DNA from: Escherichia phage vB_EcoM_I14.1
Sequence record: PP892526.1
Direction: 5' to 3' (one strand)
DNA length: 64,000 nt
A program made the translations under genes and the position numbers. The notes under the pieces were generated by a model, which did no database searches, was not told the DNA's origin, and saw only the letters and a list, made by a program, of their open reading frames with translations. Shown here piece by piece: positions 11,846 to 14,104 of this stretch (position 1 is the stretch's first letter; the number at the start of each line of letters is the position of its first letter).

Positions 11846-11975
11846 ATCTTTGTAGATAAGTTATTAAGCTTCCCTGTGAGTATGCGACCACAAAGGTGAA
11901 AGGGTAGATTCTAGATTTAACCCGAAAAGACACATCGCTACAGACCTTAAGCAAGTCTGGGTAGCTTATCTACAA
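11846..11975 (+). ncRNA. large stem-loop element closed by a 12-bp inverted repeat
   Basis: TTTGTAGATAAG..CTTATCTACAAA enclosing ~105 nt with internal hairpins; no ORF. Confidence 0.4.
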
Positions 11976-11987
11976 AGACAATTTAAT

Positions 11988-12063
11988 GGAAGTGTAGCAG
12001 AATGGTGATGCGGCAGACTTTTAATCTGACAGGCGATGGGTTCGAATCCCTCCACTTCTACCA
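11988..12063 (+). tRNA. tRNA-Lys(TTT)
   Basis: Anticodon loop CTTTTAA, T-loop ttcgaat, CCA; imperfect T-stem. Confidence 0.6.
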
Positions 12064-12067
12064 ATAT

Positions 12068-12144
12068 GGTTCAGTCGCAGATAAGGTAATGCAGGGGTCT
12101 CATAAGCCCTATGAATGTGGGTTCGATTCCCATCTGAACCTCCA
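12068..12144 (+). tRNA. tRNA with CAT anticodon (Met or lysidine-Ile)
   Basis: Loop CTCATAA, T-arm GTGGGttcgattCCCAT, CCA. Confidence 0.65.
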
Positions 12145-12145
12145 A

Positions 12146-12221
12146 GCTGGTATAGTTAAGAAGGTTATAACACTCCCCTGATAAGGGAACATCGGTGGTT
12201 CGATTCCACCTACCAGTACCA
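12146..12221 (+). tRNA. tRNA-Ile(GAT)
   Basis: D-stem GTTA/TAAC, loop CTGATAA, T-arm GGTGGttcgattCCACC, CCA. Confidence 0.7.
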
Positions 12222-12236
12222 ATTTCAATAAAGTTG

Positions 12237-12265
12237 TTGACATTGAGATGTGACCACTTTATAGT
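12237..12265 (+). promoter_or_regulatory. sigma70-like promoter TTGACA-N17-TATAGT
   Basis: Direct reading; precedes a ~330-bp ORF-poor structured region. Confidence 0.55.
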
Positions 12266-12596
12266 AACTAAAATACTTCATAATATGTATAATTCAAACA
12301 CCAATACATGAGCGTTAGACGTAACACAATGTGGGGAAATTTGTTGTACATATTCTGAATAGTTTTCGTTGCGTAGCGTCTATTTTGCAAATTTAAAATA
12401 AATGCAAACGACAATGTTTTTCTGGCAGTAGCTTGATAGGCTAAACACCAGTGAGGTCTTCCAATTCCTCATCAAAGAATTTGGCGTACTAGCCCACGGT
12501 ATGATTAATAAGGTGGGCAACATTCTAAAGGGTATCCCTTATGGGGCTTGGCTTAAATGCAATGAGTACCCTTTAAAATGTTAATTACGGGGCGTA

Positions 12597-12669
12597 TCTC
12601 AGCGGTCTTCTAAACCGCCGTTAACCGAGTAAGTGGAGTATGCGGGTTCGAGTCCTGCCGCCTCGACCA
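12597..12669 (+). tRNA. atypical tRNA-like element (anticodon loop TCT, no recognisable D-arm)
   Basis: Acceptor CGGGGCG/CGCCTCG, anticodon stem-loop GCGGT-cttctaa-ACCGC, T-arm GCGGGttcgagtCCTGC, CCA; D-arm missing and extra 22 nt before T-arm. Confidence 0.35.
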
Positions 12670-12684
12670 ATTTTGGATGAAATC

Positions 12685-13032
12685 ATGAAAACTTGTATTA
12701 GGTGCAAACTTAGCAAGGATGAAAGTGATTTCTACATGAAAGATGGTAGGAGAACTCATTCATACTGTAAAAAGTGTGTTAATGAGCAAACCATAGAAAG
12801 GCAAAGAGCACTTAAACTTACAGCTATTGAGTACAAAGGTGGGGTTTGTCATGATTGTGGTAAAAGGTATCATCCAGCAGTGTATGACTTCCATCATTTG
12901 AATCCTTCAGAGAAAGATTTTAACATTGGTCATAGAAAAAGTCTTAAGTTCTCTCAGGAGCTAAAGGACGAACTTGACAAATGTGTTTTGCTATGTTCAA
13001 ATTGCCATAGGGTAAGACATGCAAAGTATTAG
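12685..13032 (+). CDS. HNH homing endonuclease
   Basis: CxxC..CxxC zinc ligands, DFHHLNP and CSNCH motifs; ATG at 12685 just after the tRNA-like 3' end (ORF track start 12640 lies inside it). Confidence 0.8.
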   Translation: MKTCIRCKLSKDESDFYMKDGRRTHSYCKKCVNEQTIERQRALKLTAIEYKGGVCHDCGKRYHPAVYDFHHLNPSEKDFNIGHRKSLKFSQELKDELDKCVLLCSNCHRVRHAKY

Positions 13033-13168
13033 TTAGCAGATTGCTTAGACGACCTTATCGGGTCTCCGTGTAAGGAGGTGGTCTGTATCTCATGTTTTCC
13101 AGAACATGTAAATAATCTGAGAAGGGGCTTTACAGTGTTGCGAAAATACGGTAAGCTTCGAATTATAG

Positions 13169-13251
13169 TGTGGGACGATGTTAAGACTCTAAGGCATGAG
13201 CAACGGCCTCCAAAACCGTTTCAAAGGGGTTCAACTCCTCCGTCCCATGCC
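13169..13251 (+). tRNA. atypical tRNA-like element, possible CCA anticodon (Trp)
   Basis: Acceptor GTGGGAC/GTCCCAT, T-loop ttcaact, CCA, but D region oversized and anticodon stem irregular. Confidence 0.3.
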
Positions 13252-13265
13252 AAAGTCTTATTAGG

Positions 13266-13353
13266 GGTAGGTAGCGGCTAATGGTAGCCAAACTGTCTTG
13301 AAAACAGTTGCCACTGTAGAGATACGGTGAGGGTTCGACTCCTTTACTTACCG
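13266..13353 (+). tRNA. tRNA-Ser(TGA), long variable arm
   Basis: Anticodon stem ACTGT/ACAGT, loop CTTGAAA, T-loop ttcgact. Confidence 0.65.
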
Positions 13354-13506
13354 CCTAATAAGATTTAAAGCCAAGCTTCATTCGGATGTTGCTTTGGTAT
13401 CCCTCGTGTATTGTCGTACACAAGTAAAGCACCTAGTAGGTGTCACGGAGAAGAGATAATATCAAGCTCTCCAAAGGTTCTAGTCACCGGATTAAACAAG
13501 ACTATG

Positions 13507-13530
13507 CAAAGACCAATTTAGGTCTTTTTA
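13507..13530 (+). terminator. candidate intrinsic terminator inside tRNA region
   Basis: AAGACC-aattta-GGTCTT followed by TTTT. Confidence 0.5.
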
Positions 13531-13608
13531 GAGGGCTTCTAAGGTTATTACAGCTTGTTGTGGAACCTTGTTGCTTAGGTTCTTAGAAGTTCTCTAAAAA
13601 GATTTAAT

Positions 13609-13685
13609 GCACCTATAGCCCAATTGGTAGAGGCAGCAGACTTAGAATCTGCTCAGTGTGAGTTCGAATCTCTCTAGGTGTACCA
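13609..13685 (+). tRNA. tRNA with TAG anticodon (Leu-type), short variable region
   Basis: Anticodon stem AGCAGA/TCTGCT, loop CTTAGAA, discriminator A, CCA. Confidence 0.65.
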
Positions 13686-13692
13686 AATTAAT

Positions 13693-13768
13693 GCAGGTGT
13701 AGCAAAATGGTTATGCGGCTGACTCTTAATCAGTAAGACGATGGGTTCAATTCCCTCCACCTGTACCA
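13693..13768 (+). tRNA. tRNA-Lys(CTT)
   Basis: Loop CTCTTAA; T-arm near-identical to the TTT-Lys gene. Confidence 0.7.
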
Positions 13769-13774
13769 AACATT

Positions 13775-13850
13775 GGGGATGTAGTTTACATGGTTAAAAC
13801 ATAAGTTTTGCAAACTTAAGTACAGGGTTCAATTCCCTGCTTCTCCACCA
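13775..13850 (+). tRNA. tRNA-Ala(TGC)
   Basis: Anticodon stem TAAGT/ACTTA, loop TTTGCAA; G3:U70 pair present in acceptor stem. Confidence 0.75.
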
Positions 13851-13856
13851 ATTAGT

Positions 13857-13931
13857 GCATCCATAGTTTAAACGGGAAAATTACAGTCTTCCAAACTGAG
13901 GTTGAGGGTTCGATTCCCTCTGGATGCTCCA
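13857..13931 (+). tRNA. tRNA-Gly(TCC)
   Basis: Loop CTTCCAA, T-arm GAGGGttcgattCCCTC, CCA. Confidence 0.7.
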
Positions 13932-13937
13932 AACAAT

Positions 13938-14014
13938 GCTGCTTTCGTATAATTGGCTATTACACATCCCTTGTAAGGATGGAAATGCAGGTTCAAGTCC
14001 TGTGAGCAGCACCA
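13938..14014 (+). tRNA. tRNA-Thr(TGT)
   Basis: Anticodon stem CATCC/GGATG, loop CTTGTAA, CCA. Confidence 0.75.
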
Positions 14015-14018
14015 ATTC

Positions 14019-14104
14019 AGAGGTCAAGTGAAAGACCGCTGGTGTCAACTGAAGACCGTAACAAATTCCACGGAGTTGAGTTAGCGGCACAACTTCAGAC
14101 CTCT
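14019..14104 (+). ncRNA. stem-closed structured element (GAGGTC..GACCTC)
   Basis: Inverted repeat with internal CTGAAG/CTTCAG pairing; contains GAAGACCGTAACAAATTCC, related to the E-element 5' motif. Confidence 0.35.

Follow-up and report, generated by a model that had tools for sequence, protein, structure and literature searches.

A phage RNA family related to the messenger part of transfer-messenger RNA, and two further structured elements, in the tRNA cluster of Escherichia phage vB_EcoM_I14.1

The tRNA cluster of Escherichia phage vB_EcoM_I14.1 contains an element, here called B, that is best read as an RNA derived from transfer-messenger RNA (tmRNA), which appears to consist of the messenger part only, to carry an anti-tmRNA domain, and to be widespread and unannotated. 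The reading that we favor, at a probability of about 0.55, is that B stems from the coding part of tmRNA and docks on host tmRNA to swap or block its tag, with two further elements, A and C, as conserved structured spacers. The stretch analyzed (the window) comprises 64,000 nucleotides (nt) of sequence record PP892526.1, to which the Felix O1-like myovirus Escherichia phage vB_EcoM_D4 (PP886228) is 100% identical. The cluster occupies positions 10866 to 16519 of the plus strand, holds 24 tRNAs according to ARAGORN, and contains all three elements. No RNA feature is present at A, B, or C in the public annotation, and the D4 record has small hypothetical open reading frames (ORFs) at these sites.

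A preliminary description, made from the letters of the window, had proposed several small stable RNAs beyond the tRNAs. This holds to the extent that A, B, and C are conserved, strand-specific structures and that B has its own conserved promoter; A and C are presumably stable as RNAs. Comparative alignment, one of the checks proposed there, showed that the pairing of all three is retained in related phages, with compensatory changes. Together with G.U pairs, these changes indicate that A, B, and C function on the plus strand. The folding z scores alone are modest, and conservation and compensatory change in related phages are the decisive support. Another of the proposed checks, a covariance-model scan, gave no known RNA family for A, B, or C: Rfam searches with gathering and E-value thresholds on the window and 11 related loci returned nothing but tRNAs at threshold.

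Promoter, modules, and distribution of B

Element B is composed of the following features.

12237 to 12265, plus strand: sigma-70-type promoter of the B RNA, TTGACA-N17-TATAGT
12266 to 12359, plus strand: optional leader module (stem-X-stem), whose 5′ arm (12266 to 12292) pairs with 12344 to 12370 and masks the 5′ seed
12360 to 12388, plus strand: 5′ domain of the core RNA, UAGUUUUCGUUG...GCGUCUAUUUU, antisense to host ssrA nt ~80 to 106 (resume-codon region and tag codons 3 to 6)
12404 to 12439, plus strand: tmRNA-like tag template without a start codon, GCA AAC GAC AAT GTT TTT CTG GCA GTA GCT TGA TAG (ANDNVFLAVA and two stops)
12451 to 12484, plus strand: pseudoknot A, a hairpin (12451 to 12456 with 12467 to 12472) with the conserved loop UCUUCCAAUU, in which CCAA (12461 to 12464) pairs with UUGG (12481 to 12484)
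12485 to 12518, plus strand: pseudoknot B, with the stem CGUAC (12485 to 12489)/GUAUG (12499 to 12503), GCCCAC (12492 to 12497) pairing with GUGGGC (12513 to 12518), and the linker AUUAAUAA
12519 to 12587, plus strand: variable 3′ module, with the stem AACAUUCUAAAGGGUA/UACCCUUUAAAAUGUU around CCCUUAUGGGGCUUGGCUUAAAUGCAAUG

The promoter, already recognized in the preliminary description, matches at 11 of 12 positions and ranks first among the sites between 10650 and 14450. It is conserved in the alignment of FelixO1, DR094, SUSP2, Moogle, and Sf16, and analogous TTGACA-N17-TAGATT promoters stand immediately 5′ of the RNA in siphoviruses and in Erwinia phage Hena2. The ORF-poor stretch that had been placed at 12266 to 12596 is real, with ORFs of only 27 to 48 amino acids on either strand, although the promoter itself precedes the start of that range. 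The nested inverted repeats reported within it are likewise present (12266 to 12292 with 12344 to 12370, 12519 to 12534 with 12567 to 12582, and smaller ones). However, the repeats at the two ends (12266 to 12370 and 12519 to 12582) are optional modules that are absent or replaced in sister phages, and B, rather than being a generic set of stem-loops, belongs to a large family of phage RNAs that have a tag frame, two pseudoknots, and an ssrA-antisense 5′ domain.

The arms of the leader are 27 nt long and 78% complementary, and the leader folds with −25 kcal/mol (z score, −3.0; 0 of 200 shuffles equal). This insertion of about 90 nt (12269 to 12359) is present in the window and in FelixO1 and absent from DR094, SUSP2, Moogle, and Sf16. 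Since it masks the seed in the window and FelixO1, it suggests that the B RNA of these phages is a processed precursor. From 12360 on, identity across FelixO1, DR094, SUSP2, Moogle, and Sf16 is 89 to 99%, which exceeds that of the E4 spacer at the same loci (73 to 100%). The arms of the 3′ module (16 nt, 94% complementary) show G-C to A-U and U-A to C-G changes in Moogle; a plain hairpin replaces the module in DR094-type phages, and its insert is also found upstream of the RNA in some siphovirus contigs. The 3′ end of the B RNA probably lies where the next tRNA-like gene is excised.

A sensitive search with 12360 to 12587 as the query retrieved the 159-nt core (12360 to 12518) in 664 phage records from unrelated groups, with matches outside the Ounavirinae mostly spanning query positions ~36 to 160. 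The core is carried by Ounavirinae, including Hena2 (Kolesnikvirus), by the Ackermannviridae Vi01, Det7, and KpS110 (Kuttervirus/Taipeivirus), by siphovirus groups (YX3973, ZX4, swi2, Bas81, and C1), and by one Gamaleyavirus. Among E. coli genomes it occurs at 237 plasmid and 110 chromosomal places, and the one such plasmid that was examined, of ~110 kb, combines a tRNA cluster with genes of phage type. Another 54 loci came from a pattern scan of IMG/VR. Literature searches retrieved no description of the B RNA, a search for Felix O1 transcriptomes gave nothing relevant, and Rfam 15 has no family for it.

A tag reading frame without a start codon

The ten sense codons of the frame in B encode a peptide comparable to the E. 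coli ssrA tag (ANDENYALAA and two stops). The family presents 20 distinct tag DNAs, each of which consists of 10 sense codons and a stop that always falls at codon 11, and the encoded peptides follow the pattern AN[DE]xx[FYVM]L[AMI][AV]A. Synonymous variants include AAC/AAT, CTG/TTG, GCT/GCC/GCG, GTA/GTG, and TAA/TAG/TGA, and codon differences of a single nucleotide fall at codon positions 1, 2, and 3 in 134, 44, and 345 cases, respectively. This variation is that of a coding-type constraint.

The frame is preceded by an A-rich stretch that ends in AUAAAU, which places U at −5 and A at −4. The junction of AUAAAU with GCA is invariant in 54 scanned members, a count obtained with a scan pattern that demanded the motif; a plasmid version found independently has A at −4 and C at −5. 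On tmRNA, A86 (position −4) is the main determinant of the frame (PMC2481249). The Rfam models tmRNA_permuted, alpha_tmRNA, and tmRNA all align locally at the tag region. The best score is that of tmRNA_permuted in Moogle, at 29.7 bits (E value, 2.7e-4) against a gathering threshold of 47; alpha_tmRNA (20.8, threshold 50) and tmRNA (15.2, threshold 47) score lower in that phage, and the scores of 20.4 and 11.9 in the window are also below threshold. The tmRNA_permuted consensus aUAAaUGCaAACGAuAAc is identical to the phage sequence.

Two pseudoknots downstream of the tag frame

Support for the pseudoknots comes from an alignment of 32 sequences, in which the counts cover the first three helices. 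Of the 475 cells at their 15 pairs, 99.4% are paired, versus 31 to 52% when the partners are slid. Changes on both sides occur in 7 of the 15 pairs (60 cells), and the covariation score of 0.355, versus 0.169 in shuffles, is reached by 0 of 500 shuffles. In helix 1, double changes are found in three of six pairs. The hairpin loop of pseudoknot A reads UCUUCCRRYU across the family, with CCRR pairing to YYGG, and helix 2 formed in this way is 100% paired, in the variants CCGA/UCGG, CCAA/UUGG, and CCAG/CUGG. Helix 3, the first stem of pseudoknot B (CGYAC/GURUG in the family), is 99.4% paired and has two pairs with double changes. The second stem of pseudoknot B occurs as eight different complementary strand pairs, such as GACGGGAG/CUCCCGUC in Vi01, and the linker next to it is invariant. 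Two near-invariant G.U pairs indicate that it is the plus strand of B that is functional.

Upstream of the tag frame, siphoviruses have no more than a hairpin, and Ounavirinae are without conserved structure there. Any homology of the downstream pseudoknots to PK2 and PK3 would be tentative.

Complementarity of the 5′ domain to host ssrA

The conserved motif (U)AGUUUUCGU(U/C) lies at the extreme 5′ end of the RNA in every context. In Ounavirinae, YX3973/Bas81-type siphoviruses, Hena2, and the phage-plasmid, the GUUUUCG motif begins 3 to 7 nt past the start implied by the −10 box, and in array-type siphoviruses the 5′ motif directly follows the ...U-CCA of an upstream tRNA-like module, whose CCA processing puts the motif at the 5′ end. 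The motif is the reverse complement of codons 3 to 6 of the E. coli ssrA tag (GAC GAA AAC UA, nt 96 to 106).

The targets were E. coli ssrA and one Salmonella ssrA, compared by an ungapped-helix scan and by restricted RNAduplex with controls; unrestricted RNAduplex of the whole RNAs was uninformative. In the window, the seed forms a 12-base-pair helix with E. coli ssrA 95 to 106 (11 Watson-Crick pairs and one G.U pair). The seed helix also reaches 12 base pairs in Hena2 and 9 to 11 in siphoviruses, and no longer helix forms between the two RNAs in 10 of 12 lineages. The duplex of the window's 5′ domain with ssrA has an energy of −27.1 kcal/mol (z score, −4.5). Across lineages (14 of 14), the first 45 nt bind ssrA 70 to 130 with −23 to −36 kcal/mol and z scores of −3.8 to −6.4, which 0 to 1 of 200 shuffles equal. 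The duplex with Salmonella ssrA is somewhat weaker, owing to an ACC codon that leaves one mismatch. The first 26 nt bind host ssrA with −20 to −30 kcal/mol, about twice the −7 to −17 kcal/mol obtained with the phage's own equivalent region, and the best binding window inside ssrA is nt 64 to 115.

Behind the seed, a second block differs by lineage: GCGAC in siphoviruses, GCGUCUAUUUU in Ounavirinae, GCGACUGUUU in the phage-plasmid, and GCGGCUGUUUUU in locus L031; Ackermannviridae have three blocks, GUUUUCGU, CGUU, and GCGRC. Each of the lineage-specific blocks is complementary to ssrA 80 to 96, the resume-codon region, and siphovirus versions additionally pair with ssrA 70 to 80. Pairing around the resume codon has been reported to inactivate tmRNA (PMC2481249).

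Relation of B to tmRNA and to other RNAs

ARAGORN, applied to the window and to 20 representatives of the family, reported no tmRNA. The core contains no T-arm, and a T-arm-like hairpin was not found within 1.5 to 2 kb of many family members. As the RNA begins at the conserved 5′ motif, it has no acceptor 5′ strand. B hence lacks the tRNA-like domain that defines tmRNA, yet it is clearly related to the messenger part of tmRNA.

The likeness is to tmRNA, above all to the coding piece of the two-piece (permuted) form found in alpha- and betaproteobacteria and cyanobacteria. It extends to a start-less frame beginning with GCA AAC GA.., to the same upstream context of AUAAAU before GCA with U(−5) and A(−4), and to the length and composition of the tag (ANDxx[FY]LAVA in the phages, ANDENYALAA or ANDN..AVAA in tmRNA). 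In both, the stop codons lie in a small hairpin that is followed by H-type pseudoknots, and the three Rfam tmRNA models match, below threshold, exactly at the tag region. In contrast to tmRNA, B has no acceptor stem, T-arm, or CCA and is therefore not chargeable; its 5′ end is a conserved seed, antisense to the tmRNA of the host; it has two pseudoknots only, with no conserved PK1 in Ounavirinae; and it is found on lytic phages and phage-plasmids beside tRNA clusters.

Several other assignments were tried. That of B as a normal or permuted tmRNA was rejected for want of a tRNA-like domain and because the Rfam tmRNA scores stay below threshold. A tRNA-like part made of the 5′ motif as a D-loop analogue, of pseudoknot B as a T-arm analogue, or of the 3′ module was dismissed for lack of an acceptor end or CCA; the 3′ module (the hairpin CCCUUAUGGGG followed by GGGGCU) is also optional. 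A general alanine-acceptor partner was discarded as well, as G3:U70 is unconserved in the siphovirus tRNA-like modules and the Hena2 fragment. No SmpB annotation was noticed near the RNA in the loci inspected, for which no dedicated search was made.

An exhaustive survey of 2014 found viral ssrA only in mycobacteriophages (Bxz1, Catera, and others) and Bacillus phage G, and none in other RefSeq viral or plasmid genomes; Felix O1 is unmentioned (PMC4131195). Mycobacteriophage DS6A carries a tmRNA fragment that comprises the tRNA-like domain only, and the authors suggest that it interferes with host tmRNA-SmpB (PMC4131195). B resembles these cases in that phages keep full or partial tmRNA genes, of which DS6A shows a partial one retained. 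The difference is that those are full tmRNAs or the tRNA-like half, whereas B is the messenger half only, joined to an antisense domain.

Base-pairing small RNAs with 5′-terminal seeds are known, such as RybB and OmrA/B, and include phage-encoded examples. B shares with them a conserved, single-stranded 5′-terminal seed of 9 to 12 nt and an interrupted, extended complementarity to one host RNA. It differs in that its proposed target is a noncoding RNA of the translation machinery and in that it carries a homologue of the region that it would mask.

A proposed mechanism and its alternatives

In the mechanism that we propose, B would be transcribed from its own promoter, with the optional leader hairpin masking the mature 5′ end. 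The core would present, in order, the 5′ anti-ssrA domain (matching ssrA nt ~70 to 107), the A-rich stretch up to AUAAAU, the start-less 10-codon frame with its stops, and two H-type pseudoknots. In vivo, the 5′ domain would anneal over the resume codon and the first tag codons of host tmRNA, which would silence the host tag template and tether the phage template to the alanyl-tRNA-like domain of the host and to SmpB. Rescued ribosomes would then either leave the protein untagged or resume on the phage template, whose translation would append a phage-specified tag, mostly ending in LAVA or MAA and not in the ClpX degron LAA. ClpX recognizes a C-terminal LAA, and a phage tag ending in LAVA or MAA could alter the fate of tagged proteins, presumably to the benefit of the phage. 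The proposal draws on the conservation of the RNA, the coding-type variation of its frame, its pseudoknots, its lack of a tRNA-like domain, and its complementarity to ssrA. A more specific version is put forward tentatively: many enterobacterial phages and phage-plasmids may encode a parasitic tmRNA coding piece that forms, with host tmRNA-SmpB, a hybrid two-piece tmRNA in which the phage tag (e.g., ANDNVFLAVA) replaces the degradation tag, and the phage would in this way redirect what becomes of proteins from stalled ribosomes in infected cells.

Several points weigh against the docking of B on host tmRNA and against the role given to A and C. To our knowledge, a separate RNA has never been shown to act as a template for trans-translation, and the proposed hybrid geometry is putative. 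The idea of ssrA as the target was formed post hoc, after the sequences had been inspected. Among 45-nt windows of 93 kb of unrelated gammaproteobacterial DNA, 0.08 to 0.2% bind the 5′ domain equally well, so the duplex energy is convincing only for this target, which is special a priori; an 11-pair helix somewhere in ssrA arises in 19 of 300 whole-RNA shuffles; and the complementarity to ssrA 70 to 80 may be only homology of a PK1-like helix. Covariation of the seed with the host was not found, all members found being enterobacterial and having the same seed. Klebsiella and Salmonella Ackermannviridae carry this seed too, and Salmonella ssrA, with its ACC codon, leaves one mismatch against it. 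For A and C, the YrlA and Y RNA models of Rfam match neither element, even at E values up to 10, and the covariation comes from few independent lineages. With regard to divergent hosts, the “Acinetobacter” phage AB4P2 proved to be a Bas81-like sequence and offers none for comparing the seed, and a second IMG/VR scan, with a pseudoknot pattern, retrieved no divergent family members.

The main rival, which we consider rather unlikely, is that B acts purely as an antisense small RNA and inhibits the trans-translation of the host, through occlusion of the resume codon or cleavage of tmRNA, and that its tag frame is an untranslated relic of an ssrA fragment. The complementarity to ssrA 70 to 107, the reported inactivation of tmRNA by pairing at the resume codon (PMC2481249), and the missing tRNA-like domain would all fit. 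A relic, however, would not hold 10 sense codons and a stop in 20 DNAs, with variation biased to third positions and leucine written as CTG or TTG, nor would it keep the frame-setting context AUAAAU before GCA and two covarying pseudoknots downstream. A pure inhibitor accounts for the seed but not for the coding-type conservation, and a neutral relic is disfavored.

A further alternative takes B for an ordinary tmRNA, perhaps in two pieces, with a tRNA-like domain that has been overlooked, either in a neighboring gene or in the siphovirus tRNA-like modules. The gene in question directly follows B.

12588 to 12669, plus strand: D-armless tRNA-like gene with the anticodon loop CUUCUAA, the acceptor stem CGGGGCG/CGCCUCG, G3:U70, A73, and CCA (Rfam tRNA score of 31.7 bits, fold, and alignment)

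This gene combines an arginine anticodon loop with an alanine-type acceptor stem (C1-G72, G2-C71, G3:U70, A73, CCA) and a long variable region. It is kept in Felixounavirus, and ARAGORN does not call it; the Rfam search reports one extra tRNA here, at 12588 to 12666. Its alanine-identity features and lack of a D stem recall the tRNA-like domain of tmRNA, some siphovirus copies of B follow a module that ends in ...CUCUU-U-CCA, at times with a T-arm-like hairpin, and a permuted tmRNA model is the best Rfam match. Against this, the same slot holds a normal tRNA-Arg(UCU) in Moogle, SUSP2, and Sf16, many members have no T-arm within 1.5 to 2 kb, an RNA that starts at the seed has no acceptor 5′ strand, and neither ARAGORN nor Rfam at its gathering thresholds detects a tmRNA. 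We regard this alternative as improbable, and a link between the gene and the B RNA is putative and unproven.

It is most improbable that B is a gene for a small protein or leader peptide, with its structures as mRNA features or terminators: an AUG does lie 2 nt before the GCA codon, and the GenBank record has two overlapping hypothetical proteins on the minus strand across the B RNA (12268 to 12523), but the AUG opens a frame of 5 to 13 amino acids that is unconserved across the family, the frame that is conserved lacks a start codon, the covarying helices contain G.U pairs that a minus-strand function would not permit, and the 90-nt indel and the swapped 3′ module disrupt the minus-strand ORFs in sister phages. 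These indels and the plus-strand G.U pairs indicate that the two annotated proteins are spurious.

Bacteria rescue ribosomes mainly by trans-translation, which is also a drug target, and phage tRNA clusters are increasingly viewed as kits to repair or bypass host attacks on translation. An RNA family with the properties proposed for B would be the first case of a virus that supplies or hijacks only the messenger half of tmRNA, and a tag swap in trans, if true, would be a new mechanism. It would bear on whether the messenger and tRNA functions of tmRNA are separable in trans, on how the resume codon is selected, and on what a phage gains from an altered C-terminal degron. The family is present in hundreds of phages, among them the model or therapeutic phages Felix O1, Vi01, and Bas63/Bas81 and the SSU5-like phage-plasmids. 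On a minimal reading, B is a structured phage RNA, new and widespread, that neither Rfam nor the genome annotations include; the latter have spurious ORFs in its place.

Elements A and C and the Ro60-like gene

Elements A and C flank B within the cluster, downstream of a Ro60-like gene.

11842 to 11983, plus strand: element A, a spacer between E4 and tRNA-Lys with a 22-nt imperfect closing stem (11842 to 11863 with 11962 to 11983)
14019 to 14104, plus strand: element C, an 86-nt spacer between tRNA-Thr and tRNA-Val with the apical part UCAACU-GAAGA-CCGU-AACAAAUUCC-ACGG-AGUUGA
9285 to 10700, plus strand: Ro60-like gene for a 471-amino-acid “RNA-binding protein” with Pfam domains DUF2828 and DUF7788 (PHROG 850)

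The inverted repeat of A was present as previously described, but the 12 base pairs given for it fell short of its extent: an inverted-repeat scan delimits arms of 22 nt that are 91% complementary and 98 nt apart. Inside lies the hairpin CAGACC (11941 to 11946)-UUAAGCAA-GUCUGG (11955 to 11960). The 130-nt fold has an energy of −34.6 kcal/mol (z score, −2.4), and 3 of 200 shuffles are as good. A occurs throughout the Felix/Moogle/Susp group of the Ounavirinae in two diverged versions, between which the closing stem is preserved by a U-A to C-G change and a paired 1-nt deletion, and the inner hairpin passes from CAGACC/GGUCUG to CAAACC/GGUUUG.

The closure of C was as reported, with AGAGGTC/GACCTCT at 14019 to 14025 and 14098 to 14104. 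Its fold (−30.1 kcal/mol; z score, −3.4) is matched by 0 of 200 shuffles. C is found in 259 phage records, in 234 of them at an identity of at least 95%. The Vequintavirinae phage TH18 has a diverged copy that does not lie in a tRNA cluster; a G-C to U-A change maintains the closing stem of this copy, and 27 of its apical nt, GUCAACUGAAGACCGUAACAAAUUCCA, are invariant.

A and C share a bulged helix of the type CAG(AAG)ACC/GGUCUG with the neighboring E repeats, which presumably correspond to the elements E1 to E4 of the preliminary description. These repeats have the form CAGAAGACC-NN..CAGCAA ... NN-GGUCUGG and lie at 11035 to 11107, 11198 to 11261, 11619 to 11695, and 11709 to 11840, with AA/UU versus GU/AC covariation beside the core. 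Inside E4 lies a tRNA-like module in circular permutation (T-arm, closed acceptor hairpin, and D-arm), and the E stem ACCGU/ACGGU matches that of the anticodon arm in the phage tRNA-Arg(UCU).

For the Ro60-like protein, the PDB offers no match at the level of sequence and Pfam no canonical TROVE match. According to a preprint, its homologue in Bas63 is structurally Ro60-like and counters the Ppl defense system, and some Bas63 “tRNAs” are speculated to be Y RNAs (PMC11482910). Bacterial Y RNAs (YrlA and YrlB) are encoded beside Ro60 orthologues (PMC4201824). In the window, A starts 1.1 kb and C 3.3 kb downstream of the Ro60-like gene on the same strand (the elements lie ~1 to 3.4 kb away), so that A, C, and E1 to E4 are all within 4 kb of it, and the layout of E4, with stem, T-arm, closed acceptor hairpin, and D-arm, is that of YrlA (PMC4201824). 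The differences are that A and C match no Rfam model of YrlA or Y RNA, lack the GNCGAA motif, and fold without a T-arm, a D-arm, or any tRNA-like module, and that the protein is not a canonical TROVE protein. In position A and C thus agree with Y RNAs, and in model and motif they do not.

The conservation and pairing described above indicate that A and C are structured RNA elements of the plus-strand transcript of the tRNA cluster. Most plausibly they are ligands of the Ro60-like protein, similar to Y RNAs, or processing stems of the RNase III type. That A, C, and the end modules of B are features of the DNA or incidental, as remnants or targets of homing endonucleases or as simple processing or terminator hairpins without a function of their own, we consider unlikely. 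HNH genes do stand at variable sites of the cluster, modules are gained and lost between sister phages, and the long, near-perfect stem of A would suit RNase III. However, 234 of 259 records match C at an identity of 95% or more despite diverging flanks, and even the Vequintavirinae phage, whose copy lies outside tRNA clusters, has the apical loop unaltered. The pairing of A is kept through compensatory changes and G.U pairs.

Other tRNA-like sequences and hairpins

Around the B RNA, tRNA-like sequences recur in other phages. At the siphovirus loci L008, L010, L025, L026, L031, and L020, the RNA lies within arrays of repeated modules of the form CACAAC-AGGU-AAGAGCAUUG - X - CAGUGCUCUU-UCC-GUUGUGG, which match no Rfam family. 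Their X part varies and at times has an anticodon-like arm and a T-arm-like hairpin, which gives D-armless tRNA-like units ending in U-CC(A/G); one type of X (CCCUUAUGGGGCUUGGCUUAAAUGCA) is common to the 3′ module of the window (12519 to 12582). In Vi01 (L007, 1170 to 1330 and 1800 to 1925), the RNA copy is flanked by two large tRNA-like elements that ARAGORN does not call, each with an acceptor-like stem of 8 or 6 base pairs, a T-arm, and an insert of >100 nt; one of them ends in ...GGCUCCA. In Hena2 (L009, 1400 to 1458), a D-armless mini tRNA-like sequence, GAGUAAU...GGUUCGAAUCC...AUCACUCGCCA, adjoins the promoter of the RNA on its upstream side.

Within the window, an HNH homing-endonuclease gene (12685 to 13032, plus strand) is inserted between the tRNA-like gene at 12588 to 12669 and the next tRNA-like sequence. 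FelixO1 has further HNH genes elsewhere in its tRNA cluster, and their differing positions mark the cluster as a hotspot for such insertions. The sequence at 13172 to 13246 is likewise tRNA-like and uncalled: its anticodon loop is of the CCA (Trp) type, its T-arm and acceptor stem are good, and its D region is aberrant. It sits within an annotated hypothetical ORF of 67 amino acids, and its sole Rfam match is a weak one to tRNA-Sec (23 bits). The strongest hairpin of the span, outside A, B, and C, is found at 13514 to 13608, immediately 5′ of tRNA-Leu(UAG), with a stem of ~28 base pairs and −37.6 kcal/mol (z score, −6.6; 0 of 200 shuffles equal).

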